Shown in pieces: positions 1,859 to 58,398 of a stretch of DNA of 60,797 bases. A program made the translations under genes and the position numbers. The stretch's first letter is position 1; each line of letters starts with the position of its first letter. The notes beneath the pieces are model-generated. The model searched no databases and was not told the origin of the DNA. It worked only from the letters and a program-made list of their open reading frames with translations. This stretch comes from Candidatus Woesearchaeota archaeon. Its GTDB lineage: Archaea > Nanobdellota > Nanobdellia > UBA10117 > GCA-020343615. The stretch spans positions 469,709 to 530,505 of the forward strand of contig CP070803.1 of NCBI GenBank assembly GCA_020343615.1, given 5' to 3'.

Positions 1859-3133
1859 TTATGAAGAAGGATTAGACATCCTTCCTATAAATAAAATATT
1901 TCCAGTTTCTCTGTCTTGTATTATGAATATAAACGGATGATCTGCTCTGAAAACTTTTTGTTCTATAGGGAGAGAAGTAAGTGCCATTCCCACGCCAGTT
2001 GCTGCAGCAGCTTCTGTGCCTTCTTCATTAACTTCAACAAATGCCTGGTGTATTACAAAATCAATGAATAACATTCTTGTTCCATCCATTCCAGAGAAGT
2101 CTGCATTTTCTGAAAAAGCAACAGTCATCCCCATTTTCTTAAGATCGTTTGACATAAAATACTTAGTTTCAAAGGTAAATTTAGGAATGTAGATATCTAC
2201 TCTTTGATTCTCCAACATGTTTTTCCATTTATTTAGGTTTTCAACAGTAAACTCGTTCTCTATTGAAGCTAAATCATCTTTCGGAAGAAGGATTAACATG
2301 GATAAGTCATTACCATCGTAAGGAAGCTCAAGAACCTGTAATTTATCTGTTTCAGCGTAACTGAATTTAGCTTCTTCTCCAGTCAAACGCATCATTTCAG
2401 CTTTTACACTACCTTCACTTGTTGTAAAGTCCTCTTCTCTAGTGTTTTTCTCATCGAATTGTTTAACCCAAGTTCCCTTGAAGTAAATAGCATTAGTAAG
2501 AACTAAACGAGTCATATCATGAAGAAAACCTTTAGGAATCAGATTCTTTATTTTATCATTTGTTTGCTCTTCTACCCATTTATTTATCGTCTGCCTTGAA
2601 TTTTCAGTGTCTTCTACGAAGTCAAGGTTAGTGACTTTTCCCCCATAATATGTCTCCATAGTTTTTAGGTAACTTTCTAAAAAAGTATAATCCTTTTGAG
2701 CCCATAAAGCATTGGCAGTGCTTAAGGCATAACTTTTATTCTCTTTGTTTATTTCATTGTAGATTCTTGCAAAAGAAGGCCTTCTAGCGTCATTATCTTC
2801 TGGGAAATGAAAAACATCTACAATTTCTTCTGCAGTTTGACCTTTGGCTCCTTCATAAACCATTGCTAAAGCTGTTGAAATGCTGTATGGAGAAAAGAAT
2901 ATGTTTCCTCCATCGTCTTTGATTTCAGAATAATACTCTAATGCGAATAAATTATTAGCTTCTACAATACTTTCTACGCTTCCGACAGTTGCTCCAATAT
3001 CACTAAGCCTGCTTGTTCCAGTTCCAGAACCTATATCTCCTGTGCCTACTTCAAAATTTGTAAGATATAGAACACAGCTTAGAACAATAGCGAATATTAC
3101 TATACCTATAAGGATTATATTTTTATCTTCCAT
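1859..3133 (-). CDS. serpin (serine protease inhibitor) with N-terminal membrane anchor/signal
   Basis: Serpin motifs: FFSPYSISTALAMVYEGAKGQTAEEI, reactive-centre hinge EEGTEAAAATGVGMALTS, and C-terminal FRADHPFIFIIQDRETGNILFIGRMSNP. The hydrophobic N-terminus is NIILIGIVIFAIVLSCVLYL. Start trimmed to ATG 3133 (MEDKNI). Confidence 0.9.
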   Translation of the reverse strand: MEDKNIILIGIVIFAIVLSCVLYLTNFEVGTGDIGSGTGTSRLSDIGATVGSVESIVEANNLFALEYYSEIKDDGGNIFFSPYSISTALAMVYEGAKGQTAEEIVDVFHFPEDNDARRPSFARIYNEINKENKSYALSTANALWAQKDYTFLESYLKTMETYYGGKVTNLDFVEDTENSRQTINKWVEEQTNDKIKNLIPKGFLHDMTRLVLTNAIYFKGTWVKQFDEKNTREEDFTTSEGSVKAEMMRLTGEEAKFSYAETDKLQVLELPYDGNDLSMLILLPKDDLASIENEFTVENLNKWKNMLENQRVDIYIPKFTFETKYFMSNDLKKMGMTVAFSENADFSGMDGTRMLFIDFVIHQAFVEVNEEGTEAAAATGVGMALTSLPIEQKVFRADHPFIFIIQDRETGNILFIGRMSNPSS

Positions 3134-3177
3134 TCTAATTGTTAACAAAAAAGTCCAAATATATAAAATTAATTGAA

Positions 3178-4377
3178 TCAAAAAATATCTTCTAGTTGGT
3201 CCACAACATCTAGAATAACTTTAAATTCTTCAGAAATGCCTTTTCTGAGGACTCTTTTATCAGGATACCTACCATCAATCATCTGATCCTTAACTTCAGC
3301 ACACCATTGTTTTAACGAAGGCTTTGTTTTTTCTATCCCCTTTAGAAAATCTGAGTAATTTATTTTACTATTTTCACTATTATTTCTCTTTCTTTCATAA
3401 GCAAGCAATCCAGCATCCTTGCATATTTTTTCAAGGTCAGCACCAGAGTAACCCTTAGTTAAGCCAGCAAGTTTATTGAAATCAATCTCATTGTCTATTT
3501 CCCTACCTTTAGTGTGTATTTCAAGAATCTTAGCCCTTGCTTCCAAATCAGGAGGAGGAACAAATATCAACTCCTCAAATCTCCCAGGTCTGACAAATGC
3601 AGAATCAATATTCCAAGGATGATTTGTTGCTCCTATGACTAATATTGTTTTATCAGTAATATCGTCAAAATCAGACTTAAATTCATTAGCTAGGTCTTTT
3701 CTATGACCAGATAGGTCCTTTCCTCTAGTACCTGCTAATGAATCAACTTCGTCGAAAAATATTATTGCTGGTTGGTTTTTAGCAGCATTTTCAAACAAAT
3801 TCCGCATATTTTGTTCTGAATTACCAACATACATGTTTTTTATGTCACTTTGATCTACTTTGTAGAATTTTACAGAGCTTCCTGATTTGTTAGCTTCTCC
3901 AGCTGCAGCTTTAGCAAGAAGAGTTTTTCCACATCCTGGAGGACCATACATTATGACTCCTCTACATCCACCGCCAACATATTTACGATAATCTTCAGGA
4001 TCAGTTACAGGCCAGATTATTTTCTTCTCAATATCTTTCTTTATGCTTTGCATGCCAGCAACATCTTCAAAAGTCTTAGAAGGAATATCAAAAGCTGTTA
4101 TATCTTTAATCTCCTTTTTACTGTTACTCTTACCTTTGCTTACCGTAGCTTCTTTTTTTGCAGGATTATAATATCTAGCCAGGTCTATATTATTTCTAAT
4201 AAAGTCCTCTAAGTATTCTTTTTCTTCGTTGTCGTGTGTTTTCTTATAAGCCTCTAAGGCAGATTCAGCAGCCTTGAAATATAGAGCACTAGCAACCTTT
4301 AGTTTGTTTTCCCGTACTGCTTTATTAGCTAATTTGACATAGCTTTGAGGCAAGCTTAGAAGTATAAAAGAGTCCAT
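3178..4377 (-). CDS. single-module AAA+ ATPase with MIT-like N-terminal domain (Vps4/CdvC-like architecture)
   Basis: Walker A GPPGCGKT, Walker B IIFFDEVDS, second region of homology ATNHPWNIDSAFVRPGRF. The helical N-terminal ~75 aa (LANKAVRENKLKVASALYFKAAESALEAYKK...IDLARYY) resembles an MIT three-helix bundle. Its ATG lies 1 nt after the stop of the upstream gene. Confidence 0.8.
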   Translation of the reverse strand: MDSFILLSLPQSYVKLANKAVRENKLKVASALYFKAAESALEAYKKTHDNEEKEYLEDFIRNNIDLARYYNPAKKEATVSKGKSNSKKEIKDITAFDIPSKTFEDVAGMQSIKKDIEKKIIWPVTDPEDYRKYVGGGCRGVIMYGPPGCGKTLLAKAAAGEANKSGSSVKFYKVDQSDIKNMYVGNSEQNMRNLFENAAKNQPAIIFFDEVDSLAGTRGKDLSGHRKDLANEFKSDFDDITDKTILVIGATNHPWNIDSAFVRPGRFEELIFVPPPDLEARAKILEIHTKGREIDNEIDFNKLAGLTKGYSGADLEKICKDAGLLAYERKRNNSENSKINYSDFLKGIEKTKPSLKQWCAEVKDQMIDGRYPDKRVLRKGISEEFKVILDVVDQLEDIF

Positions 4378-4378
4378 T

Positions 4379-4969
4379 TTAAGTTATAACTACTTTCTCC
4401 TCATCGATTTTTTTCTCCAAGCCAGCAGCAGTTTGTTGAGAACTCTGAATTTTAGCACTCACTTTTTTCATGTATTCTTCAGCCTTCTTTTCTATTTCAG
4501 GTCCTGGAACGTAATAACTCTCTTTCATCTCACCTCTTACACTGGACTCTCTTTCCTGAAGTCTATTTAATCTACCTAAAGTTTCTTCTAAGGCGTTTCT
4601 TTCCTCACTTTCTAGAGGGCCAGTCTTCTCTTTTTTATTTATTATATCTGTTGTGACTCTGTTTATTTTCCTGTAATCTCTCTTTCTATGAGGGTCAAAA
4701 TCTCTTCCTGATATTCTTATGTTAATAGCTAAGTCATCTAATACAGATGCTTCTTCCTTCAAGTATTCTAATCTATCTTCTGCTCTTGCAGCGAGTGTTG
4801 CGTATTTTTTAGCTAAATCATTCCTACCCATTAATTGATATTCTTCTATTAATTGTTCATTTCTGAGAACTATTTTTTTGACTTCTTGAATTTCCTGTAT
4901 TACTTTTCCTTTGTTATCAAAGACTGCAGCTAAAGCCTGCTGCGTTTTTTTAGACATGGAATTATACAT
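4379..4969 (-). CDS. coiled-coil protein, candidate ESCRT-III/PspA-superfamily member (weak)
   Basis: 196 aa, predicted all-helical and rich in E/K/R/L heptads. The segment MGRNDLAKKYATLAARAEDRLEYLKEE recalls the hairpin helix of PspA/ESCRT-III. It sits directly upstream of the MIT-AAA ATPase and overlaps the upstream gene by 8 nt. The family assignment is inference only. Confidence 0.5.
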   Translation of the reverse strand: MYNSMSKKTQQALAAVFDNKGKVIQEIQEVKKIVLRNEQLIEEYQLMGRNDLAKKYATLAARAEDRLEYLKEEASVLDDLAINIRISGRDFDPHRKRDYRKINRVTTDIINKKEKTGPLESEERNALEETLGRLNRLQERESSVRGEMKESYYVPGPEIEKKAEEYMKKVSAKIQSSQQTAAGLEKKIDEEKVVIT

Positions 4970-5948
4970 TTTTTACACCTCCTATTTGAGAATAATACAG
5001 AATCTCCTCTACTGAAAGTGGAGATTTTTTAGGATCGAAATATCTAGAATAAATATCAGATTTAGGGTGAGGAGAAGTATATAATTTCTCCTCACACATG
5101 CTGTACGAAAAAAGAAGTTTATCTGGTCTGTTAAATTTTTTTACAAAATCCTTAAAAGGGGTGCTTATTTCGCCAGCAACATAACAAATTACGTTAGGTT
5201 TTCTTTTTACTTTTGTATGCTCTAAATCCAGAATATTCCCCTTATAAGAACATTCAAGATTTATCTTACCTCGTTTGTATCTAATTCCATCTTGGTAACT
5301 TCTGATTTTGTAATTTTTATTGATAATATCGCCATTGAGGTCATAACTTGGAGGTGTTTGAATCAGATCATTTAGAACTGAGTTGAAATAATTGATTTTT
5401 TCATATTCGTCTGATTTTTTCAATTCGTTCTTCCTACAATTCCTACTTGTAACAGTTCCCTTATGCTTTTTTTCAAAATTCTTAAATAATTCGGTAGATT
5501 CTTTATACAAATCAGTATACAAACAATTGATATATTGCTCTAATGCGTTTATTTCTTGCTGCTCCACCTTAGACTCGCTAAGATCCTGAAGCGAGCTTTC
5601 TACTACACTGAAATTGTTTTCCAATCTTAAAAAAGCCTTAAAGGAAGCTTTAGATACCTTTATTTTCTCTATTGTATTCTTATTCGTAATATCAACGTCC
5701 GATTGCGATATTTTATGCAATCCATATTCACAATCTTTGATTTTGTCCCATTTTTCATTAGATGAAGTCCCAGTTCGTATATCGGATAGTATACCAATAG
5801 AATTTTTTATTCTAACTTCTAAATTCTCCTTACTAATACTCTGTTTTCTTAGATAATGCCTGTATGAAACATAATTTTTAAGGCGTAGTAGTGCACTTAG
5901 AGAGACAAATTCAATAGGCTGCATAAATATATCTATCTTAGACATCAT
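4962..5948 (-). CDS. hypothetical protein (operon partner of the MIT-AAA ATPase)
   Basis: ~328-aa ORF. ATG 5948 overlaps the stop (5938-5940) of the upstream gene. No family recognised. Confidence 0.55.
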   Translation of the reverse strand: MMSKIDIFMQPIEFVSLSALLRLKNYVSYRHYLRKQSISKENLEVRIKNSIGILSDIRTGTSSNEKWDKIKDCEYGLHKISQSDVDITNKNTIEKIKVSKASFKAFLRLENNFSVVESSLQDLSESKVEQQEINALEQYINCLYTDLYKESTELFKNFEKKHKGTVTSRNCRKNELKKSDEYEKINYFNSVLNDLIQTPPSYDLNGDIINKNYKIRSYQDGIRYKRGKINLECSYKGNILDLEHTKVKRKPNVICYVAGEISTPFKDFVKKFNRPDKLLFSYSMCEEKLYTSPHPKSDIYSRYFDPKKSPLSVEEILYYSQIGGVKNV

Positions 5949-6717
5949 AATCAACCAATAATTTTAAGCCATTACTTTTGGCTTCGTTTATAATCTTATC
6001 ACCTTCTTTATTCATAAGATACTTAGAAGGTTTCATACCAGGATTTAATGAAGAAAATCTAGCAACAGCTCTTATCATTCTACCAAGAGTTTTTGCTCTT
6101 AATCTACTGTTGTAATTAGTATAAGCTAAAATGTCCTCTTCTAGTTTTTTTGCGTCTTTTTCTAAGTTTTTCAAGAAGTCGTTTATACTCATATTTCCAG
6201 CTTCCTTGTTTAATTTAGCCAAAAAATCTTCTAAACAATCTCCCACCCATGAAAATTCTGAAAAAATTTCCCATTTACTTGTAATTTTATAAGGACTTAT
6301 TCCTTTTTTTAATAAAGTGATTTTAGATCTTTTTTCAATTTCAGCTTCCAAGCACCTCTTTGTATCATCATTTCCTAAGCTTTTACTATTATATTCAGAA
6401 ATTACTCCAGATAAATCATAGCTGATCTCTCTGCTTAATTTTTCTCCAAGTTCCTCAACACTCTCTTCACACTCATTTAAAGATTTGAGATAATCCGGAA
6501 GATTCAAGTTATATTTTAAAATACAACTCCCTATCACTCTTTGACCATCTCTAGTTTTTCCAATTATGTTTAAGTTTAAATCGTAAGAATTAACGTGAAA
6601 TTTAGCTTTTTTTGGTCCTTGATATTTTTTTATCACTCTACCTTTTTTATAAATTCCATATATTGTTCCAGTAGCTACCCCTTTTTTCGAAATTATTTTA
6701 CTAATTAATCTACTCAA
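5938..6717 (-). CDS. hypothetical protein, first gene of the MIT-AAA ATPase operon
   Basis: 259-aa ORF with a TTG start at 6717, preceded by the strong Shine-Dalgarno GGGGGTGA (complement of 6723-6730) at 5-nt spacing. A beta-rich N-terminal ~80 aa is followed by a helical region. No family recognised. Confidence 0.55.
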   Translation of the reverse strand: MSRLISKIISKKGVATGTIYGIYKKGRVIKKYQGPKKAKFHVNSYDLNLNIIGKTRDGQRVIGSCILKYNLNLPDYLKSLNECEESVEELGEKLSREISYDLSGVISEYNSKSLGNDDTKRCLEAEIEKRSKITLLKKGISPYKITSKWEIFSEFSWVGDCLEDFLAKLNKEAGNMSINDFLKNLEKDAKKLEEDILAYTNYNSRLRAKTLGRMIRAVARFSSLNPGMKPSKYLMNKEGDKIINEAKSNGLKLLVDYDV

Positions 6718-6887
6718 TTAGTTCACCCCCTAGAATATAGAATATATACTTGTATTTTAATGAACGTAAATTAATAGCGCTGTATAACGATTATTCTCGC
6801 TGAAAGGTCCCTCATTAATAAAAATATAGGACTACTTTTAAATAATATTTTAAAGTTTTCTTTGTTTAGTGAAAATTGAGGAATAAT

Positions 6888-7202
6888 ATGCCATTTGGCG
6901 CAGGTGGAGGATCAAATAGTAGAAAAGAATCTGATAGCCTTGAGACTTTTGACTGTAGATTTTATAATATCCATAATCAGTGTCCAGGAATTAAATTAAT
7001 TAAGTCATTAGGTATGGATTTAGAATCAGTTAAAAATAAATATTGTTCACAAAATCATGTAAAAGCATGTCCAGTTTATAAAGTATTAGAAGATCACAGA
7101 ACACTAAGCAACTTAGAAGGGGAGATACTAGCAAGCCTTTCAAAGTTGAGACCTAAAAAAGTTAAGGTAAATAATACACACAAATACTATTCAGAACTCT
7201 AA
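6888..7202 (+). CDS. small Cys-containing hypothetical protein
   Basis: ATG 6888 is preceded by GAGGAA. 104 aa with four Cys (CRFYNIHNQCPG...KYCSQNHVKACP). Divergent from the 6717 operon. Confidence 0.45.
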   Translation: MPFGAGGGSNSRKESDSLETFDCRFYNIHNQCPGIKLIKSLGMDLESVKNKYCSQNHVKACPVYKVLEDHRTLSNLEGEILASLSKLRPKKVKVNNTHKYYSEL

Positions 7203-15612: not shown

Positions 15613-17040
15613 TTAACCTCTGAAAGTTATGTATCCGTGAGCTTTTCTGTATATCTTGAATAACTTATATATGTCATCTAACACCTTTTCTCTTGCTTGC
15701 TCCTTAAGTAACTTAATTAACCATCTATCCTTCCTGCTTACTTTCTTTTCACCCTCCTTCTTTTTAGGAAGGCGGGGGACTAATGGGCCGAACATTTCTT
15801 TAAGTCCTTTTACTGGAGCACCAAAGATATCAAAAAAACCTCCTAGGATATTAATTGAAGGAGTCTTTTCTTTATCATCTGGCTCATTTAAGTATTCATC
15901 CAAATCGTCAGCTATAGCGTCTAATGACTCCTTTGTCATTTGATCTATGAATCCAAAAATCTCTCTATCCTGCGCCTCCTTTATTTTTTCCAGCTCAGAT
16001 TTTGTAAAAACGTAAGCATAGAAGTCAACTATTATCTGTCCCATATGCCTATAGCTTTTTCCAGATTCACTCTGGTTAACTATGATAGGCTTGCTACTGA
16101 AGATAAAAACCATCTCAATAGCTTGATATACAGTATCTGAAGGCTCCCTGACTCTCTGGCTACCTTTTAAGCCCATGGGATTCTTACCTATCCTAGTAAG
16201 GCCATAAAAATAAGATGAAGCTTTTGATTCCTTTCTTCCCATAATAGATACAGAGACAGTAGAAGTGTCGAAAAAATTAACTACATCTATTGCAGCCTCT
16301 TCGTATAGTTCTTCACTTTGCCTCAATCTATGAGCAGCTAATAGGTACGGTCTTGCCCATTTACTGTATTGTTTTAATGATGCTACTTGTGCTTTTAAGT
16401 AAGATTTTTCTATTTTCCTTCTTTGACGTAGGTCTTTTTCATATCTATCTCTCCATTTTTCATATTCCTCAATTCTAGCACCTACTATCCTCTTTACTCT
16501 TTCATTTAGGTCTAGGCTTTCTACGTCTTTTACACTCTTAGCTTGTAAAAACGCATCTCTTAGAGTTACAAATTCCAACTTGCCGCTGGCTGTAAGCTGG
16601 TTTATACTACCCACACCTCTTTTAGTATCTACCTCATCCATCCATACAGATTTTATAGCAATTTCAGCAGCATCTTTGTTCTCACCACCTAATTTACGTA
16701 AATCATCAAAAATTTCCAGTCTTCTGTCAAATTCCTTTAGGTCATAAACTAATTGTAGAATGCTCTTTATTACGGTGTTCACATCTGCCATTATTTCTTT
16801 AGCCCTTTGCTCCATCCTCGTTTTTTTCATACCTAGGTCTGAAAAGAAGGAGCTAGCTACAGCTACAGCTACAGCTTCGTCAGTCTTCTCAAGCTGGTAT
16901 CCTTGAACATTTTTTAGATAATCTGTTAACCAGTAGTAAGTTGGCTCTAAACCTGCTGCTGGAAGATCCAAAACTAATTTCCTATGATCAACACGACGTT
17001 TTTCTTTGAATTTCTTTACATTGAACTCTTTTTCGTCCAT
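15613..17040 (-). CDS. hypothetical protein coupled to the TIM-barrel gene
   Basis: 475-aa ORF whose stop lies 1 nt before the downstream ATG. No family recognised. Confidence 0.6.
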   Translation of the reverse strand: MDEKEFNVKKFKEKRRVDHRKLVLDLPAAGLEPTYYWLTDYLKNVQGYQLEKTDEAVAVAVASSFFSDLGMKKTRMEQRAKEIMADVNTVIKSILQLVYDLKEFDRRLEIFDDLRKLGGENKDAAEIAIKSVWMDEVDTKRGVGSINQLTASGKLEFVTLRDAFLQAKSVKDVESLDLNERVKRIVGARIEEYEKWRDRYEKDLRQRRKIEKSYLKAQVASLKQYSKWARPYLLAAHRLRQSEELYEEAAIDVVNFFDTSTVSVSIMGRKESKASSYFYGLTRIGKNPMGLKGSQRVREPSDTVYQAIEMVFIFSSKPIIVNQSESGKSYRHMGQIIVDFYAYVFTKSELEKIKEAQDREIFGFIDQMTKESLDAIADDLDEYLNEPDDKEKTPSINILGGFFDIFGAPVKGLKEMFGPLVPRLPKKKEGEKKVSRKDRWLIKLLKEQAREKVLDDIYKLFKIYRKAHGYITFRG

Positions 17041-21145: not shown

Positions 21146-22903
21146 TTATTCGAAATACCAGTAATGGTTTTTACTCTTTTGTTCCCTATCTAATCTGGAA
21201 TTAAGCTTGTTAACCCTAGGCCTACCGGAATCAGGGTCTTTTCGCAAGGTGACGTCCAATTCTTTAAGAAAAGAGTTCATACCCTCTTTTACTCCGGCTA
21301 TTTCCTTAGCAACGCCTTTTTTAGCTGGTTCTCCTGTAAAAACCAAGAATCTACTAGAGAAATAACTTAGAAATAGAAGATCATGATCTATTATTATGAA
21401 GCTAGCATTCTTTTTTTTACTGATTTTCCTCAATGTTTTAGCTACATGCAGTCTTTGCTCTACGTCTAAATAATTAGAGGGCTCGTCTAATAGGTATAAA
21501 TCTGCATCTCTTCCCAAACACGCAGCTATGGCTACTCTTTGTAATTCTCCACCAGATAATTCAGTTAGGTCTTTTTCAAGTAATGGAATGACTTCTAATG
21601 GTTCTAATATCTCATTTTTTCCCTCTATTGTTAGTAATTTCTTGTTTATTTTTTTGAGAACATCCAGAACCAAACCCTTGTTTGCTTCTATATATTGCGG
21701 TTTATACGAAATTTTTAGGGTAAAATTCAATTTTCCTTCATCAGGCTTTAGTTCTCCTGCTAGCATTTTCATAAAAGTGGTTTTCCCAATGCCGTTTGCA
21801 CCGATTATTCCTACAATTTCGCCTAATTTAATCTCAGAAGGCTCAACCTCAAGGTTAAATTTGCCTAATTTTTTGGCCATTTTAGGCCATAGTATCAACG
21901 TTTCCTGGCTTAATTCGGATTTTAAAGCGCCAGGATCAAACTTTATAGGCTTATCCCTAAACCTTATGTTCTCATCAGACAAATATCCGTCTAAATAGGT
22001 ATTTAATCCCCTTCTTTCTGACAAAGGATGAGATACTATACCATATGCTCCTGATTTTCCGAATAATAGGTGAGTAGAATCAGTTAAGTAGTCTAAAATA
22101 AGCAAGTCGTGCTCAATTACAATTACTGGTTTTCCTTTTTCAGCAAGTTCTCTGATAACCTTAGCCACCCTAATCCTCTCTTTTATGTCTAAATATGAAG
22201 CAGGCTCGTCAAAGAAGTATAAGTCAGCTTCTTTAAGAATAGCAGCAGCAACTACCACTTTTTGTAGTTCCCCACCAGATAACTTTGATAATTTACTGTT
22301 TAAAATGTCATCCAAACCCAATTTTTTAGATATGTTTTTAATATTCTTAGAGAATTTATTCAATAATTGCTTAGCAGTGCCCTTAAATTGCTTTGAAATT
22401 AGGTTAATTTCTTGGATTTTATAAGAAACTTTGATTTTATCTGAATTCAAGTTCTTAAAGTAAGCTTGCAATTCAGTTCCTTTGAAATGATCTAAGATAT
22501 CCTTTTCTTCTACTGATTCTCTGCCTAGGTTAGGTTTTAATAAATTTGATAGTAATTTTAACGCAGTTGTCTTACCTACACCGTTTCTTCCCAAAAGACC
22601 AACAACTTCTTTTTTCTTAGGGATAGGCAATCTAAATAGTTCAAAAGCATTAGGACCATATCTAAAGATAGGATCTTCCTTTAATGCTTCTGGAAGATTT
22701 ATTATTGAAATAGCTCCAAATGGGCATTTTTTAATGCAAATCGCACATCCAACGCAGAGACCTTCGTCTATTATTGGCTTGCCATCAGGGCCAATAACTA
22801 CTGCTTCTTCTCCTACACGTACTCTTGGACATGCTTTTTTACACTCCTGAGCACATTTCTTAGGTTGGCATTTATCTCTGTCTAAAATAGCTATTCTTGT
22901 CAT
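21146..22903 (-). CDS. abce1: ABCE1 / RNase L inhibitor-type ribosome recycling ATPase
   Basis: N-terminal 4Fe-4S region (CQPKKCAQECKKACP...CVGCAICIKKCP). Two ABC modules with Walker A GRNGVGKTT / GANGIGKTT and signature LSGGELQ twice. Confidence 0.95.
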   Translation of the reverse strand: MTRIAILDRDKCQPKKCAQECKKACPRVRVGEEAVVIGPDGKPIIDEGLCVGCAICIKKCPFGAISIINLPEALKEDPIFRYGPNAFELFRLPIPKKKEVVGLLGRNGVGKTTALKLLSNLLKPNLGRESVEEKDILDHFKGTELQAYFKNLNSDKIKVSYKIQEINLISKQFKGTAKQLLNKFSKNIKNISKKLGLDDILNSKLSKLSGGELQKVVVAAAILKEADLYFFDEPASYLDIKERIRVAKVIRELAEKGKPVIVIEHDLLILDYLTDSTHLLFGKSGAYGIVSHPLSERRGLNTYLDGYLSDENIRFRDKPIKFDPGALKSELSQETLILWPKMAKKLGKFNLEVEPSEIKLGEIVGIIGANGIGKTTFMKMLAGELKPDEGKLNFTLKISYKPQYIEANKGLVLDVLKKINKKLLTIEGKNEILEPLEVIPLLEKDLTELSGGELQRVAIAACLGRDADLYLLDEPSNYLDVEQRLHVAKTLRKISKKKNASFIIIDHDLLFLSYFSSRFLVFTGEPAKKGVAKEIAGVKEGMNSFLKELDVTLRKDPDSGRPRVNKLNSRLDREQKSKNHYWYFE

Positions 22904-29307: not shown

Positions 29308-30690
29308 TTAAACTGTAGTTTTATTATACACTTTAACTAATTCTGGTAAATAAGTCCCAGAGTATAATGAATCTTCAAATGCTATTTTAAATGGTTCTTC
29401 TAAATGTAATTTCTTACCCGCTCTATTATATTCTGGGTACCTATTAACATTCCCGAATACATCTTTTTTCTTTATGACTGGAACATAGGCTTCAGGTATT
29501 ACATTCCATACGAACTCATCCAACCAGTCTTCAGGTAATTTATCCTTAAACTTATCTTTAAGATGAATAGCTTGAACGCAGATATCGAACAGCTTTTTGG
29601 AATAATCTTCTTCACTAAATCCACTTCTAGGTTTACTTACTTTATCTGATAAACCACTAATTCTACCGTATTTTTGAAGAAGTCTACTAATATATGTTGG
29701 ATGAGGAAAATTATCTAAAACTGGTTCTTCCATCATGACCGAATAGAGAAGTAATTCATTAGGAACGCATCCTTTTTTTACAAGTTTTTCCTTGGCTAAA
29801 TCTGCAAAGGTTTCGTAGCTGATATATTCTACTTCTTTTTCACCATCAAGATGAGTCCAGATGGTAGTAGTACCCATTTTTCCAGAATTTTCAAATTCAT
29901 TCACAAAATTAACAAGAGATCTAGGACTTCTGTCACTATTATTATAAAAAAAAGTAACAATAAAGTCATCTACTCTAACATTAGAGTCTTCAAAAAGCGA
30001 TCCAAATTGATTTACTTTAAATTTTGGAAATAATATTTTAGATAAATAATTCTTAGAATCACGTAGGTATCTTACTTCTTCCTTACTTTTAGTACTATGT
30101 GATTTACTAGGTCTTACTTCTCCGAATTTTAAGAGAACGTCATCAAGTGTTTTAATTCCTGCTTTGTCCAAATAATGTGAAAGTTGTGCTTCCGAAACAA
30201 GCATAATATTTTTTCCTCTATTTGCTTCATAAATTGTACCTTGTAAAAGATTTTCAAATTTTTTAGGTTCAAGAGTACCTTCTACTATTGAATCTCCCAT
30301 ATAATGTATATCATCAATAATTATAGGATTACAATAATTTAACAGATCACTTACTGAATTTTTTTGATATAATTCTTTAATTATGTCGAATCTTTCTCCC
30401 CATGTTTCTTTTGTGGCTATTTTTTCAGGGTCTAATGCTTCGATTTTATTTGATTTTTTATAAATAAACATAACTGGAAAAGGATTAGATTTATCTTTCG
30501 CAATGTTAGATAAAGCTTTTCTAATATGGAAAGTTTTACCTATACCTTTCGGAGCAAGTAAGTATTTAGGATATCTTTTATTATAACTTGTTAAATTTAC
30601 TACGAGATTATCAACAAAATCTTGAGAGATAGGTCTTAATGTCTCAAGTTCTTCCAGAGTGTAATCTTCAGCTCGGGGTTTCATAGCCAT
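29308..30690 (-). CDS. P-loop NTPase (archaeal ATPase/AAA-like) with large uncharacterised C-terminal region
   Basis: Walker A LLAPKGIGKTF and Walker B-like NPIIIDDIHYMGD in the N-terminal ~170 aa. The remaining ~290 aa are unassigned. Confidence 0.6.
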   Translation of the reverse strand: MAMKPRAEDYTLEELETLRPISQDFVDNLVVNLTSYNKRYPKYLLAPKGIGKTFHIRKALSNIAKDKSNPFPVMFIYKKSNKIEALDPEKIATKETWGERFDIIKELYQKNSVSDLLNYCNPIIIDDIHYMGDSIVEGTLEPKKFENLLQGTIYEANRGKNIMLVSEAQLSHYLDKAGIKTLDDVLLKFGEVRPSKSHSTKSKEEVRYLRDSKNYLSKILFPKFKVNQFGSLFEDSNVRVDDFIVTFFYNNSDRSPRSLVNFVNEFENSGKMGTTTIWTHLDGEKEVEYISYETFADLAKEKLVKKGCVPNELLLYSVMMEEPVLDNFPHPTYISRLLQKYGRISGLSDKVSKPRSGFSEEDYSKKLFDICVQAIHLKDKFKDKLPEDWLDEFVWNVIPEAYVPVIKKKDVFGNVNRYPEYNRAGKKLHLEEPFKIAFEDSLYSGTYLPELVKVYNKTTV

Positions 30691-49809: not shown

Positions 49810-51336
49810 GTGAGTAAATTGGAAAAAATAAAGCAAGATATTCTAAAAGTGTTAGAAGACCATCCATCTGGATTGAGTATAAATGATATAGCAAAATACT
49901 GTAAATATCACAGAAACACGATTTCACCAAGATTAAGGTCCCTTTTGAGAAAGGGTAACATAAAAGTTAAAACTACCGGTAAGTCTAAGTTATATTATCT
50001 AAAACATCATGCTATGATAGCAGAAGGTGCTAAACACAAAGAAATCAAAAGTAAAAAGAATATATTCGTAGGCACAGGTATTTCTAAGGCTGAGGATCCT
50101 TATAAAGCAGGCAAAGAAGCAGTAGAAATGGCTATAAAGAAGGCAGGGAAAGCTCCAGATTTCGGATTAGTTTTTTTCTCCGCTGCAAAATATGGTAAAA
50201 AAGATAAAGATGTTAATGCATTGGCAAAAGGAGCAGATGATGCTTTCAAGAAAATTAACCCCAAATGCAAATGGGTTGGAGCATCTGCAAGAGCCGAAGT
50301 ATCAGATTATGGTTTTAGTGAAAATTCTGTTGTAGCAGCAGCCATATCTTCAAATTATATACGATTTGGAGTTGGTGTTGGAATAAATTCAGACAAGGAT
50401 CCGGAAGGAGCAGGAAGAAAAGCTGCAGCACAAGCAGTAAGTGATGTTCAAATGGATAAATATGTAGATCCTTATATGCAATTCTTAGCAGTAAAAAAGA
50501 AGAATGTACAAGGACTTTTGAAAATGAAGCCATACTTTATTATGACTATATTCCCAGGGCCTACAATGACCTATCTCCCAAGAGATAACGCAATTATAAA
50601 CGGTATAGAGAGAGTTACAGGCGTTCAGCCGACATTTGGTGGTGATGCAGGTGAAGATTGGTCGCTAACACAAACATATACGTTAGTAAATGGTAGAGCA
50701 TACAAAACAGGCGTTGTTGTGGTTAGCATAGTTTCTGATTTAAAGATGGGTTTTGGTGTTGCTCACGGTTACAAAAAAGACAGCGAAGTTTTAGTTGTAA
50801 CAAAAGCTAAAGGTAATATTGTTTATGAATTAAATGGAGAAGCTGCAGCACAACTCTACATTAAACGGACAGGTACAAGCATGGCACAATTAAAGAAATT
50901 TTTCCTTCCAACAATGGCAAAGGCACCAATGGGTATTACAGATATAGCAGGTAACTATTGGATAAATTGTCCATATGCTGTTGGAGATAAAGAGGGTTTA
51001 GTTTTCTTTGAGCCGGTGAAGGAAGGTACAGCTATGTGCATCATGAAAACAAATCCAGCTAGAGTTTTAAAGTCTGCAGAATCTGCAATAAAGCAATCTA
51101 CGGAGGGTATGAGAGATTTAGCTGTGCTGTTTGTATTTACATGTAGCACACGTATGTTGAGTTTAAAAGAGCAAGTACCTAAAGAAACTCAATTATTGAA
51201 GAAGGTATCAAAGAATAAGCCGTTCGTCGGTTTTTACACATACGCAGAACATGCTATGTTGCCGACAGGTTCGGTTCAAAAGCACGGTTTCACATTCGTA
51301 TGTGGTGCAATTTCAAACAAGATGATAACTGAGTGA
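49810..51336 (+). CDS. wHTH + FIST (FIST_N/FIST_C) domain regulator/sensor
   Basis: N-terminal wHTH ILKVLEDHPSGLSINDIAKYCKYHRNTISPRLRSLLRKGNI. FIST-like hallmarks PDFGLVFFSAAKY, VVAAAISS, LFVFTCSTRM and FVGFYTYAEHA. GTG start (no in-frame ATG before the HTH). Confidence 0.7.
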   Translation: MSKLEKIKQDILKVLEDHPSGLSINDIAKYCKYHRNTISPRLRSLLRKGNIKVKTTGKSKLYYLKHHAMIAEGAKHKEIKSKKNIFVGTGISKAEDPYKAGKEAVEMAIKKAGKAPDFGLVFFSAAKYGKKDKDVNALAKGADDAFKKINPKCKWVGASARAEVSDYGFSENSVVAAAISSNYIRFGVGVGINSDKDPEGAGRKAAAQAVSDVQMDKYVDPYMQFLAVKKKNVQGLLKMKPYFIMTIFPGPTMTYLPRDNAIINGIERVTGVQPTFGGDAGEDWSLTQTYTLVNGRAYKTGVVVVSIVSDLKMGFGVAHGYKKDSEVLVVTKAKGNIVYELNGEAAAQLYIKRTGTSMAQLKKFFLPTMAKAPMGITDIAGNYWINCPYAVGDKEGLVFFEPVKEGTAMCIMKTNPARVLKSAESAIKQSTEGMRDLAVLFVFTCSTRMLSLKEQVPKETQLLKKVSKNKPFVGFYTYAEHAMLPTGSVQKHGFTFVCGAISNKMITE

Positions 51337-55788: not shown

Positions 55789-56675
55789 TACAATTCTGGT
55801 TGGGTTATATGTAAATAATATATATACATAGTATTAACTAAAGGTAAACCAAATAGTATCATCTCCTTAAGAATATCAACTCCTCCAATTGGTGAAAAGA
55901 AGTTCATTAAGGAGAACATACTTATGAAAAGCACTGGTGCTGCAATAAATAATCCAGTATATATAGTTGAGTACATAGTAAGTTTTTCTTGGTACTCCTT
56001 TGCTTTTAATCTGTAATCCATTTCTTTTCTATTAGCTTCTGTTTTTAGGAACAGCTCGATGTCACCGCCGTATTTTATAGTCATTACTAATGAAAGTATG
56101 AATTCTTTGAATGATTGTGATGGAGTGATACTAGCACATTTAGCCAGAGCATTCATTAATCCATAATTTCTTTCTTCCATTAAGTATACAATGTATTTTG
56201 CTTCTTCACTAACCTCTCCGAAACCCTCGGCTTTTGACAACATCTTAAATATATTTTGAGGTGGGACTCCAGACTCAGACACGCCAGCCATGTAGATTAT
56301 AGCAAAAGGTAAATTAACTTCTATATCTTGTTTTCTAGCATCCCCTTTCATTTTTGGATACTTATACATTATGAGGAAAGTTGCTAGAGCACAGATAAGA
56401 GAGATCAATATTGCGAATGAAATAGAAAAGAAAAGAGGATACCCTAAGAGACTTAAGAATAATAAAATTGCAAAAGTTAATATTACAAAAACCAAAATAG
56501 ATGTAAAGTATATTGTAGATAAATATACCTCAAAAAGAGCTTTCATCCGGGCATTCATATACTCTCCAGTAATTTTTTCATAATCTCGTATATTCTTACT
56601 TACGAATTTTAAAAAAAGTCTAGCTGAAATTTTTCTGTATAGACTAGGACTTTCTTTTTCCTTTTTTAATTTCAT
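55788..56675 (-). CDS. type IV filament platform protein, T2SS-F domain (ArlJ/TadB-like half)
   Basis: LPFAIIYMAGVSESGVPPQNIFKMLS...LMNALAKCASITPSQSFKEFILSLVMTIKYGGDIELFL with flanking TM helices. 1-nt overlap with the next gene. Confidence 0.75.
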   Translation of the reverse strand: MKLKKEKESPSLYRKISARLFLKFVSKNIRDYEKITGEYMNARMKALFEVYLSTIYFTSILVFVILTFAILLFLSLLGYPLFFSISFAILISLICALATFLIMYKYPKMKGDARKQDIEVNLPFAIIYMAGVSESGVPPQNIFKMLSKAEGFGEVSEEAKYIVYLMEERNYGLMNALAKCASITPSQSFKEFILSLVMTIKYGGDIELFLKTEANRKEMDYRLKAKEYQEKLTMYSTIYTGLFIAAPVLFISMFSLMNFFSPIGGVDILKEMILFGLPLVNTMYIYYLHITQPEL

Positions 56676-58398
56676 TTAGGAATTCCTCTCTATCTTCCCG
56701 GAATCTATTAATATGCTGAGACATTTCCTTTAAGTCCTCAATATTGTTATCAATCATCCAGCTTAATACTAGTTTTCTGTCTTCTATTTCCTCATTTGAA
56801 TCTGAAATTAGGGTTCCAGTTTTAGGCTTAAAATTCTTTAAAGGATCAACTACTCTCTTCTCAAACTTATCATTTATAATATTCCACACGTAAACTTTCT
56901 CGGTGTTTATCTTACTAAGATGGGTATCATAACCTGCGACTTCTGAAATCTCCCGGATTCTTCTAGCACTCGGACCTTCTTTCATAGCTCTTGTAAGACA
57001 TACTAGTATATCTAGATTAGATAATAACTCAGACGATACGTTTATAGGAGGTAGAGTCAAACGGTCTATAACTGATTGAATATCTGCTGCATGTATTGTT
57101 CCTAAACATGCGTGACCACTGGCCATGCCTTGGAATAGTACAGTAGCTTCTTTACCTCTCACTTCCCCAACTATTACACAATCAGGATTCTGCCTAAAGG
57201 ATTCTTTTAGAAGTTCAAACATGGTAACTTCTCCATATCTTTTACCCGTAACATCAGGAGGACCAAAACCATATTTTTCTATAGCTGGGATCCAATGTTC
57301 ATGAGGTAAATTTAGCTCCCTAGTGTCTTCAATAGAGACTATTTTGAAGTCAAGAGGTATAAATATAGATACAGCATTTAGTATTGTTGTTTTACCCGTA
57401 GCTGTTCCCCCAGCAATTAATATAGAAGCTCCATTTTCAACAGAAAGCCAAAGGTAAGCCATTAAATCCTTACTACATGTGCCATTTTTTATTAGATCTA
57501 GGGGCGTCAGAGGTATTTCTTTGAATTTCCTTATAGTAAATGTAGAACCTCTAGTTGTGATTTCTTTTTCAAAAGTGGCATTAACTCTACTTCCATCGGG
57601 AAGCTTTCCGTCCATATACGGTCTTGCATAAGAAATATACCTACCACATCTTTGTGAAAGGTTTACTACAAAGTTATTGAGAACTTCAGCATCCTCAAAT
57701 ATAATATTGGTTCTTAGAGGTCCGTATTTTCTATGTAGAATATATATAGGAACATCTGTACCATCGCATGATATATCTTCGATATATGGATCATGCATTA
57801 TTGGTTCTAATCTTTCTAACCCTACAAAATCTCTGTATAAGTAATATAAGAGATAGTTATATTCTTTTGAGTCAATGTCATAATTCAACTCGTCCAATAT
57901 TGCAGAAGCTCTTTCAAATATATAGTTCTTTGCATCTTTAACTTCTTTTCTACTTAAGTCAATATCTACTGTATCAATTAGCTTGTTTTTTAACATATAA
58001 AGATGTGCTTCTTGTTCTTTATTCAATTTAGGCTCTATTACTTCATATGTTAATTCTTCAATTTCAGGATCAAAATGAATATGAGCTTTAGCCATCGGTA
58101 GAATCAGAGGATATATCCAAGAGAATTTCTCCATGTCTTTTCCAATTTCAGGAGGTTTTTGAATTGCAGGTTTAAGATTTAATGAAGGGTACTTGTAGTG
58201 CTTTTTTTCTTTTTTAAAAAGTGATCCTAGAACCCTTTCTACATTTATAGCTAAAGAAAAACCTTTTTTTGCCTTTTCCCCCTTTTCCTTAGGCTCCTTC
58301 TTATGTTCTTTCTTTCTTTTCCTAAATTTAGGTTCTTTTTTAATTATCGAAAAGTATAATTCTTCAATATCATCTTCTCTTTTACTATCTTTAAACAT
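56644..58398 (-). CDS. type IV filament assembly ATPase (ArlI/FlaI-PilB-VirB11 superfamily)
   Basis: Walker A GGTATGKTT, Walker B/Asp box PDCVIVGEVRGKEA, His box GHACLGTIHA, plus an N-terminal K/E-rich extension. Confidence 0.9.
   Translation of the reverse strand: MFKDSKREDDIEELYFSIIKKEPKFRKRKKEHKKEPKEKGEKAKKGFSLAINVERVLGSLFKKEKKHYKYPSLNLKPAIQKPPEIGKDMEKFSWIYPLILPMAKAHIHFDPEIEELTYEVIEPKLNKEQEAHLYMLKNKLIDTVDIDLSRKEVKDAKNYIFERASAILDELNYDIDSKEYNYLLYYLYRDFVGLERLEPIMHDPYIEDISCDGTDVPIYILHRKYGPLRTNIIFEDAEVLNNFVVNLSQRCGRYISYARPYMDGKLPDGSRVNATFEKEITTRGSTFTIRKFKEIPLTPLDLIKNGTCSKDLMAYLWLSVENGASILIAGGTATGKTTILNAVSIFIPLDFKIVSIEDTRELNLPHEHWIPAIEKYGFGPPDVTGKRYGEVTMFELLKESFRQNPDCVIVGEVRGKEATVLFQGMASGHACLGTIHAADIQSVIDRLTLPPINVSSELLSNLDILVCLTRAMKEGPSARRIREISEVAGYDTHLSKINTEKVYVWNIINDKFEKRVVDPLKNFKPKTGTLISDSNEEIEDRKLVLSWMIDNNIEDLKEMSQHINRFREDREEFLNEIKKGKRKS

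Follow-up and report, generated by a model that had tools for sequence, protein, structure and literature searches.

A four-gene operon in a DPANN archaeon that may encode a divergent, minimal ESCRT-III/Vps4-like membrane-remodelling module

Close to the start of a 60,797-nt stretch of DNA from contig CP070803.1 (assembly GCA_020343615.1, a Candidatus Woesearchaeota archaeon; positions 469,709 to 530,505, the whole stretch being termed the window here), four minus-strand genes lie one behind the other at 3178–6717. Named g1 to g4 in the order in which they are read, they encode a 259-aa orphan protein (g1, 5938–6717), a 328-aa protein (g2, 4962–5948), a 196-aa all-helical protein (g3, 4379–4969) and a 399-aa single-cassette AAA ATPase (g4, 3178–4377). 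It is as a possible module of the ESCRT (endosomal sorting complex that is required for transport) type, with g3 in the place of ESCRT-III and g4 in that of Vps4, that the operon is considered here. Inspection of the sequence found every feature that an earlier note on this DNA had quoted for these genes, including their translational coupling. The g1 stop codon (5940–5938) and the g2 ATG (5948–5946) give an 11-nt overlap at 5938–5948, the g2 stop and g3 ATG share the 8 nt ATGTATAA (4962–4969), and a single nucleotide separates the g3 stop (4381–4379) from the g4 ATG at 4377. The g2 open reading frame (ORF) runs in full from 4962 to 5954, and the ATG at 5948 was taken as its likely start; its product is the database protein P0006. 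The G+C content of the operon (~0.32–0.34) equals that of the remaining window, so that its composition is native.

Relatives of the operon are few. Word-indexed searches over 5.8 billion proteins returned for g3 only itself and one relative, for a g1 profile three relatives, and for a g2 profile itself and two others, and no true relative was found in GTDB representative genomes, JGI metagenomes or IMG/VR (the last queried with g1, g2 and g3). The sole match of a scan for the ATPase tail, L005, was a spurious one to a transporter of the major facilitator superfamily. An exhaustive HMMER search with g4 among 1.84 billion representatives gave 81,807 AAA proteins, and in this set only P0009 (86% identity) and P0142 (41%) are full-length relatives with both the N-terminal domain and the C-terminal tail. 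The locus itself was recovered in five other environmental contig sets. L001 (SRR11308167) carries the complete operon, with products of 259/303/197/397 aa and, next in line, the Nre gene that also neighbours the window copy; L002 (SRR7615342) has S6e, g1, g2 and the start of g3; L003 (ERZ27248307) has g1; and L004 with L091 (SRR21285571), from a close relative, have g1, the first part of g2, the last part of g3, the whole of g4 and a serpin gene. The most distant, L086 (ERZ27293393), encodes a g1-like protein of 264 aa, a g3-like protein of 215 aa, an 83-aa ORF and a g4-like protein of 413 aa, and its contig ends in a fragment of Nre.

Conservation of the four-gene order in relatives had been named as a point to check, and the order is kept in L001 and, within the reach of the short contigs, in L002 and L004/L091, while the distant L086 keeps three of the four genes (g1, g3 and g4) and is without g2. 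The 83-aa ORF of L086 (1655–1906) lies between the g3-like and ATPase genes and overlaps the ATPase start by 26 nt; it was considered as a g2 remnant and rejected, profile-profile comparison detecting no similarity to g2. The core of the operon is g1, g3 and g4, and g2 is accessory. Identity to the L001 orthologs is 45% for g1, 40% for g2, 59% for g3 and 65% for g4, and the ratio of nonsynonymous to synonymous substitution (dN/dS) against the closest relative (g1 0.094, g4 0.098) indicates strong purifying selection. Flanking genes are conserved as well: L001 and L086 share Nre with the window, and L002 shares S6e. The Nre_N/Nre_C-family neighbour lies at 181–1440 on the plus strand of the window, at 4836–6029 in L001 and at 4272–4463 in L086, its family match coming from the L001 copy, with which the window and L086 copies were paired by eye. 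Because synteny and flanking genes are shared among the recovered contigs, the operon is, as judged from these comparisons, a core-genome unit vertically inherited at a fixed chromosomal place.

The comparison of loci also bears on how the operon begins. The earlier proposal that g1 starts with TTG behind a strong Shine-Dalgarno sequence is upheld: GGGGGTGA (6723–6730, minus strand) stands 5 nt ahead of the TTG at 6717–6715, and all six loci keep its GGTG core unchanged. The TTG start is conserved in four of the six lineages (window 6715–6717, L001 731, L002 ~1207, L003 730). In L002 an ATG start was called (265 aa), probably in error, the TTG that yields MSKIIAKL being the more likely start. 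Use of TTG may set a low stoichiometry of g1 to g3. Orthologs, dN/dS and the conserved start with its Shine-Dalgarno sequence together argue that these are real genes rather than chance ORFs. Further upstream, the six-locus alignment contains a conserved non-coding block of 55 nt (6751–6805, minus strand; TTCAG..AATAATCGTTATACAGCGCTATTAATTTACGTTCATTAAAATA), which holds the TATA-like sequence TTAAAATA at 6753–6760 beside an imperfect palindrome around AGCGCT. The block was seen in the window, L001 (~650–705), L002, L003 and L004 and in part in L086; it is conserved far above synonymous sites and across lineages whose proteins are only ~45% identical. It is probably a B recognition element (BRE)/TATA element together with an operator for a regulator. 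An Rfam scan of the window gave no match, and a scan for sigma-70 promoters and terminators was uninformative for an archaeal host.

The product of g4 was described earlier as a single-module AAA+ ATPase, and it is a classical one: Pfam reports one AAA match (2.4e-37), followed by AAA_lid_3 (7.7e-13). Ahead of these lie a helical N-terminal domain and a basic linker of ~25 aa, and behind them a conserved C-terminal extension of ~60 aa (..TKPSLKQWC..DGRYP..KGISEEF..). On the minus strand, the Walker A motif GPPGCGKT is at 3922–3945 (residues 145–152), pore loop 1, M-Y-V-G, of the aromatic-hydrophobic-Gly type, at 3823–3834 (FVG in P0142), the Walker B motif IIFFDEVD at 3742–3765 (residues 205–212), and the second region of homology (SRH), ATNHPWNIDSAFVRPGRF, at 3577–3630, with sensor-1 N252 and the arginine fingers R263 and R266; ATNHPWNIDSAF is present as quoted at residues 250–261. 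The two Walker motifs, MYVG, ATN and R263/R266 are intact and conserved in the orthologs. The first half of the SRH, ATNHPWNIDSA, resembles ATNIPWVLDSA of human VPS4B (PW.xDSA), and the CdvC model is the only one in NCBIfam that aligns collinearly from the N-domain onwards, which it does in all three g4 orthologs.

The N-terminal domain of g4, ~75 aa long (4153–4377, minus strand), can be read from its sequence as three helices, and LANKAVRENKLK...AYKK occupies residues 16–46 as quoted. Among 177,635 distinct PDB sequences, the one best matched by a profile built from four orthologs was 2V6Y (E = 0.088), aligned without gaps (8–62 against 9–63). The entry was deposited as 'AAA family ATPase, p60 katanin' and is one which we take to be the MIT domain of the Vps4-like protein (CdvC) of S. 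solfataricus. Comparison by hhalign with the MIT domain of human VPS4B aligned the same helices (P = 0.0068, probability 5.6%), and BLASTP of full-length g4 with VPS4B starts at residue 11 against residue 9, the two methods placing the N-domain on the VPS4B MIT domain in the same register. A mini-alignment of 2V6Y and VPS4B MIT domains was poor and was not used. Taken together, these alignments suggest that the N-domain is MIT-like, short of proof.

For g3, the evidence comes chiefly from structure prediction. The AlphaFold2 model has a mean predicted local distance difference test (pLDDT) score of 72.8, rising to ~90 in the hairpin, and shows five helices: alpha1 (7–47) and alpha2 (50–87), which form the hairpin (4709–4951, minus strand), alpha3 (94–116), alpha4 (121–150) and alpha5 (157–195). 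This is the order of the ESCRT-III core, a long alpha1-alpha2 hairpin and then alpha3, alpha4 and alpha5; the segment MGRNDLAKKYATLAARAEDRLEYLKEE is present as quoted at residues 47–73. In a Foldseek search of 350,542 PDB chains, ranks 1 to 9 were taken by CdvB and CdvB2 of S. islandicus and human CHMP1B, over ~180 of 196 columns and with probabilities of up to 0.99. The ESCRT-III superfamily accounts for nine of the top ten matches and 22 of the top 50, the latter including IST1, CHMP2A-CHMP3, an Asgard ESCRT-IIIB, the PspA proteins of E. coli and Synechocystis, and Vipp1. Two orthologs align with superfamily models in Pfam, below the cutoffs: P0002 with PspA_IM30 (PF04012; E = 0.0074, 16.4 bits against a cutoff of 33.9; residues 4–192 against 36–217 of 220) and the L086 protein with Snf7 (PF03357; E = 0.2, 11.8 bits against 27.3; residues 31–200 against 2–163 of 171). 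The L086 ortholog also begins with MGLLSGAKKFWGEL (MGLL..F..), a start that resembles the N-terminal motif of ESCRT-III and PspA proteins, and has a basic N-terminal half (+8) and an acidic C-terminal half (−9). Near the C-terminus of g3, four orthologs share the motif LE[KS][KR][IL]xxx[KR] (LEKKIDEEK in the window, 4394–4420, minus strand). The MIM1 consensus is (D/E)xxLxxRLxxL(K/R), and the motif, which agrees with it at four of five positions, resembles a MIM1-type MIT-interacting helix.

The products of g1 and g2 are orphans, as had been anticipated when the two partners were said to fit no family. Neither they nor g3, nor the orthologs, gave a match above threshold in Pfam, NCBIfam, PADLOC or PHROGs, and profile searches of PDB sequences with the three proteins gave chance matches only (a Crimean-Congo haemorrhagic fever virus glycoprotein, interferon, RB1CC1). 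Profile-profile comparison found no paralogy between g1 and g2, g1 and g3, or g2 and g3. The N-terminal ~70 aa of g1 are very basic (net +14) and beta-rich, with a short N-terminal amphipathic segment, and its C-terminal half is helical; it has the conserved N-terminus M..LI.K..SK and the invariant motifs GPKK.KF and KKGI.PYKITS.W, and g1 itself is present in all six lineages. The AlphaFold2 model of g1 was unusable (pLDDT 40.7). g2 consists of a helical N-terminal region of ~200 aa and a C-terminal alpha/beta region of ~125 aa containing Cys and His. A likeness of the four gene sizes to CdvA, a further protein, CdvB and CdvC had been drawn earlier, and no evidence was found for it: g1 and g2 match nothing, g2 is dispensable in L086, and neither PRC-barrel nor CdvA appeared in the short list of sub-threshold Pfam matches for six g1 orthologs or as a PDB sequence match. 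A separate observation is that g1 residues ~210–245 (~5983–6090) and g3 residues ~130–165 (~4475–4582) share the pattern LGR...(G)xxK/ExSxY[VL]xxxE, with 42% identity over 36 columns (hhalign P = 0.07), the g3 part including the Pro-rich YVPGPE/YVPSPE. It may be a common docking motif or due to chance.

The reading favored here, at a probability of roughly 0.55, is that this DPANN archaeon has in the operon a minimal and divergent membrane-remodelling module of the ESCRT-III/Vps4-like kind, whose partner proteins are new. It is favored because two independent searches, made with different proteins, give as their best matches the interacting partners of one machine, and because g4 in addition has the domain layout of Vps4, a helical domain, a linker and a single AAA cassette. 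In such a module, g3 would be a subunit of the ESCRT-III/PspA superfamily, to which its fold bears some similarity, and would polymerise through its alpha1-alpha2 hairpin. With its basic N-terminal domain and amphipathic N-terminus, g1 might recruit or anchor the polymer at the membrane, in which case it would correspond in function to CdvA, to the beta-barrel component of the minimal system in Thermoplasmata, or to SPFH partners. g2, dispensable in L086, would serve as a lineage-specific adaptor. g4, in which both Walker motifs, the pore loop and the arginine fingers are intact, would form a hexameric AAA+ ring whose MIT-like N-domain, if Vps4 is a guide, would dock on the C-terminal LExKIxxxK helix of g3 and then thread and unfold the subunits. 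By the same analogy, disassembly or remodelling of the polymer would drive scission, repair, or the formation of vesicles and bridges. The link of the module to membranes is one that we infer, and its role may lie in division, membrane maintenance or host-cell contact, among which the sequence does not decide.

A considerable number of results weigh against this reading, and those on the AAA core come first. In the SRH, the SAFVRPGRFEE of g4 is aligned by BLASTP with SAIRR--RFEK of VPS4B. RPGRF is Cdc48/PAN/FtsH-like (p97 D2 has AILRPGRLDQ), whereas RRRF without Pro-Gly is a hallmark of the Vps4/katanin/spastin group, a distinction seen here in VPS4B and p97 only. The PW..D element had been taken earlier as a Vps4-clade trait, and this is borne out by the first half of the SRH, which is VPS4B-like, but not by the second, which continues with RPGRF. 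In NCBIfam, g4 scores 213 bits with FtsH, 205 with CDC48 and 201 with PAN, all far below the cutoffs, and CdvC (NF041006) comes fourth with 194.7 against a cutoff of 650; the L001 and P0142 orthologs behave alike. For human VPS4B, used as a control, the CdvC model is first (243.5 vs 229); the VPS4B sequence was verified against PDB 7L9X, from which it differs only at that entry's single D135C change. With g4 as a phmmer query, p97-D2 scores 181 bits, VPS4B 154, FtsH 146 and p97-D1 139. With VPS4B as the query, the comparison is in favor of the reading, g4 (154) coming about as high as p97-D2 (157) and above p97-D1 (140) and FtsH (124). The nearest non-orthologous domains are those of tandem TPR-AAA proteins, at up to 236 bits (P0021). 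Vps4_C (PF09336) has a cutoff of 21.3 bits, and three orthologs score 13.2, 14.1 and 12.8, with only ..DF...I...KPS.. aligning. Since FtsH, CDC48 and PAN outscore CdvC, p97-D2 is closest, the SRH has RPGRF and Vps4_C stays below threshold, g4 is, on these pairwise and model-score comparisons, no demonstrable member of the Vps4/CdvC orthologous group and sits in the Cdc48-D2/Vps4 neighbourhood. To the question of whether it groups with Vps4-type or with CDC48/PAN/FtsH-type proteins, these scores give an ambiguous answer. P0091, a tandem-AAA protein of 704 aa met in the search of representatives, combines a weakly MIT-like N-domain (Pfam MIT E = 0.016) and a significant Vps4_C match (1.8e-9) with RSGRF/RPGRF-type SRH motifs; an arginine-finger region of the Cdc48 type thus does not preclude MIT-like and Vps4_C traits in one protein.

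Further results in the same direction come from the other domains. Pfam MIT is matched by none of the four g4 orthologs at E ≤ 10, while PaREP1 is matched in three of them (E = 0.006–0.02) as an equally weak alternative, and the 2V6Y match, which speaks for the earlier MIT proposal, has a score below significance. The g3 model was built from a two-sequence alignment; its best Foldseek E value is 0.036 with a TM score of ~0.40, none of the matches reaches E ≤ 1e-3, and BAR domains, designed bundles and other helical bundles are interleaved among them. Window g3 matches neither Snf7 nor PspA_IM30 in Pfam, PDB-sequence profile searches with g3 find no ESCRT-III, and hhalign of g3 with E. coli PspA gives no signal. 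Both window g3 and P0002 are without an MGLF-type N-terminus and without charge asymmetry (0/+2 and +3/+6, respectively). The suggestion that g3 is an ESCRT-III/PspA-like protein has in its favor the five-helix model with its hairpin and CdvB, CdvB2 and CHMP1B as best folds, but it lacks a significant similarity, and the same is true of the reading as a whole, in which no key similarity is significant alone (Foldseek 0.036, MIT 0.088, hhalign probabilities of 5–7%). Finally, g1 and g2 are placed in no family, and in none of the four proteins was a transmembrane segment predicted or a lipid-binding domain found.

These same points are what an alternative would build on, in which g4 is an AAA+ unfoldase of the Cdc48-D2 lineage that works in the cytosol with three lineage-specific adaptors or substrates, with no ESCRT-III homology and no membrane role. 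Its tasks would be the turnover of coiled-coil filaments or scaffolds, quality control or the disassembly of complexes, and the likeness to ESCRT-III and MIT would be that of generic helical-bundle matches. The kinship of the AAA core to p97-D2 and the TPR-AAA tandem proteins, RPGRF, the sub-threshold level of every ESCRT and MIT similarity, the PaREP1 matches and the want of a membrane-binding feature all agree with this. Nevertheless, that CdvB/ESCRT-III should be the top match of g3 and a Vps4 MIT domain that of g4 would be an unlikely coincidence for unrelated helical proteins, two g3 orthologs align, one with PspA_IM30 and one with Snf7, over nearly the full length, and the MIM1-like motif in the C-terminal helix of g3 is conserved. 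A purely cytosolic unfoldase is therefore regarded as unlikely, if a serious contender.

A different weighting of the g3 and g1 results leads to an ESCRT-III/PspA-like module that serves envelope stress or membrane maintenance in the manner of PspA, and not division or scission in that of Cdv. In it, g1 would be a divergent SPFH-like scaffold, comparable with that of PspA-YdjI in B. subtilis or the SPFH component of Meth_adaptin, and the turnover of oligomers would be under the control of g4. Inspected by eye, g1 looks like an SPFH core; hhalign with HflK/C finds the same register (P = 0.0054, probability 6.7%, 145 columns) and places g1 residues 54–228 on the HflK SPFH core. P0002, moreover, matches PspA_IM30 and not Snf7, PspA and ESCRT-III proteins have been linked with SPFH proteins (PMC11188069, PMC7619361), and DPANN archaea are said to divide with FtsZ (PMC7617429). 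On the other hand, the SPFH signal is weak and becomes weaker when QmcA is added (P = 0.026, probability 1.9%), Pfam Band_7 is never matched by g1 or its orthologs, and known PspA systems are without a Vps4-like ATPase (PMC7619361). The best folds of g3 are CdvB and CHMP1B, not PspA or Vipp1. The arms of its hairpin, ~40 residues each, seem by their length to be more like those of ESCRT-III proper than of PspA. Such a system is thus considered improbable as an account of the operon.

The least probable of the readings weighed, and one given very little credence, makes the operon an anti-virus defence system, with an AAA ATPase of the IetA-like kind at its centre and the three other proteins as effectors or sensors. 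It draws on matches of g4 to IetA in PADLOC (2e-32) and IteA in NCBIfam (1.4e-28), on the orphan partners and on the very patchy distribution. The IetA scores, however, fall far under those of generic AAA families, and the match is best seen as generic because bona fide VPS4B gives a similar one (IteA, 6e-31). None of the operon proteins is an IetS-like protease or carries a nuclease or other effector domain; the flanks are housekeeping genes, and Nre and S6e adjoin the locus in distant relatives too; composition is native; and there are neither relatives in IMG/VR nor mobile-element genes nearby.

To return to the ESCRT-type module, a more specific form of it is offered only tentatively and is itself rather doubtful. 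In this form the operon would be a DPANN ESCRT system made up of an ESCRT-III-like subunit, a 'proto-Vps4', a new recruiter family represented by g1, and an accessory protein, g2, without known relatives. As a 'proto-Vps4', g4 would combine an MIT-like domain with an RPGRF core of the Cdc48-D2 type and may be either a relic of the transition from Cdc48 to Vps4 or an independent re-invention. Such a system could serve an ultra-small episymbiont in division or in making vesicles or cell bridges, and it would contradict the stated absence of ESCRT-III from DPANN. The favored reading in its general form finds support in work on archaeal ESCRT systems by Makarova et al., who trace Vps4 to a Cdc48 that lost one of its cassettes, the neighbourhood in which g4 sits, and whose criterion for calling an ATPase Vps4 is an MIT domain or ESCRT neighbours (PMC11188069). 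g3 lies directly upstream of g4 in all loci that have both, its own identity as ESCRT-III being tentative. The same study describes minimal three-gene systems, an MIT-less Vps4-like ATPase paired with a PspA-like protein, and a link between ESCRT and SPFH proteins (PMC11188069).

Several known systems invite comparison. Like CdvABC of Sulfolobus, the operon contains a trio of non-ESCRT recruiter, ESCRT-III-like subunit and single-cassette ATPase with a helical domain, if g1, g3 and g4 are what they appear to be, and the best folds of g3 (CdvB and CdvB2 of S. islandicus) and the best match of the g4 N-domain (2V6Y of S. solfataricus) come from this system. It differs in that g4 is no CdvC ortholog (NF041006 at 195 bits vs 650 and in fourth place; RPGRF), g3 is without the winged-helix extension, g1 is without a PRC-barrel or CdvA signal and there is an extra orphan, g2. 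CdvABC, furthermore, belongs to Thermoproteota, whereas the present host is a DPANN archaeon and not a member of TACK. The minimal ESCRT of Thermoplasmata (Vps4, ESCRT-III and the beta-barrel protein arCOG07400; PMC11188069) has a three-component core like the g1, g3 and g4 of L086, with a lineage-unique and partly beta-rich partner, and is likewise found beyond TACK and Asgard. That g4 belongs to the Vps4 clade, however, is unproven, and the likeness of g1 to arCOG07400 is one of description. Halo_adaptin (PMC11188069) offers a precedent for a divergent Vps4-like ATPase with Cdc48 traits beside a weakly PspA-like protein of the ESCRT-III superfamily, but its ATPase has an N-domain of the VAT/Cdc48 type in place of the short MIT-like helical domain of g4, and adaptin-like or Ig-like partners were not seen at the present locus.

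Among bacterial systems, PspA/LiaH/Vipp1 with SPFH proteins, as in PspA-YdjGHI of B. subtilis, similarly sets an ESCRT-III-superfamily protein beside a candidate membrane scaffold, to be compared with the PspA_IM30 match of P0002 and the weak SPFH register of g1; these bacterial systems are without a Vps4-like unfoldase (PMC7619361), and the SPFH signal of g1 is weak. The highest likeness in the AAA core alone is to Cdc48/VAT/p97-D2 and to TPR-AAA proteins (p97-D2 181 bits, P0021 236 bits), which share RPGR(F/L) and AAA_lid_3 with g4. Unlike them, g4 is a single cassette without CDC48_N or a TPR array and has an N-domain and a C-terminal extension of its own, shared only by P0009 and P0142 among the 1.84 billion representatives.

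Directly downstream of g4, a gene for a full-length serpin lies at 1859–3181 on the minus strand (Pfam Serpin 4.3e-122), with a hydrophobic N-terminal anchor. It overlaps the g4 stop only when its upstream TTG is used, and its likely start is a Met at ~3133 behind its own AT-rich box; it is present in the closest relative (L091, 1331–1906) and absent from L001. As a fifth operon gene it was rejected on account of its own AT-rich box, the plausible internal Met and its absence from L001, and it is regarded as a neighbour. A membrane-anchored serpin is unusual for a tiny DPANN genome. On the other side, a 108-aa Cys-rich ORF (6876–7202, plus strand) is divergent from g1 and has no family match; in L002 that position is occupied by an ORF of 109 aa that differs from it, and given this difference the window ORF may not be a gene. 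Elsewhere in the window, archaeal housekeeping genes are found (S6e, aIF2-gamma, ABCE1, aIF5B, enolase and an Obg-like GTPase), together with two large minus-strand ORFs without a Pfam match at E ≤ 1e-5 (15613–17040, 475 aa; 29308–30690, 460 aa) and a FIST_N/FIST_C sensor protein (49810–51336, plus strand). A secretion or pilus ATPase of the T2SSE type (56644–58398, minus strand) stands within a co-directional gene run at 54–60 kb, which is probably a pilus or archaellum-like locus.

The window belongs to a 919,475-bp contig, so that a near-complete 0.92-Mb contig of the host lineage exists in public assemblies. Among 185,579 species representatives of GTDB r232, ABCE1 (21146–22903) has best identities of 58–61%, the best matches being metagenome-assembled genomes of Woesearchaeota and Pacearchaeota. 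As its ABCE1 is closest to these groups and at most 58–61% identical to them, the host is, by this marker, a Woese/Pacearchaeota-like DPANN archaeon of a lineage without a GTDB representative, in agreement with the earlier impression that the genome is not TACK-like.

This placement is what gives the operon its wider interest. ESCRT-III homologues have been described in all major archaeal lineages but DPANN, according to a 2025 review (PMC7619361), species with Cdv proteins are known in only three of the four archaeal superphyla (PMC8970359), and division in DPANN has been ascribed to FtsZ (PMC7617429). Makarova et al., whose census of ESCRT systems in archaea is the most thorough, leave DPANN unmentioned in their main text (PMC11188069), and full-text literature searches brought up no report of ESCRT-III from Woesearchaeota or any other DPANN. 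The operon is confined to a narrow, uncultured lineage, and structural and biochemical confirmation is needed.

If the favored reading is true, the phyletic range of ESCRT-type machinery would extend to DPANN, because the literature excludes these archaea and the host is one of them, with a 0.92-Mb genome; this would bear on the gene content of the last archaeal common ancestor. With its MIT-like N-domain and a single cassette that has a Cdc48-type SRH, g4 would then stand as a natural link in the descent of Vps4 from Cdc48 that has been proposed. The operon adds two protein families without known relatives, and g1, g3 and g4 make up a very small three-protein core for reconstitution. For the episymbiotic DPANN archaea themselves, the module would, again if the reading is true, be a candidate machine for cell division, vesicle release or the formation of cytoplasmic bridges to their hosts.

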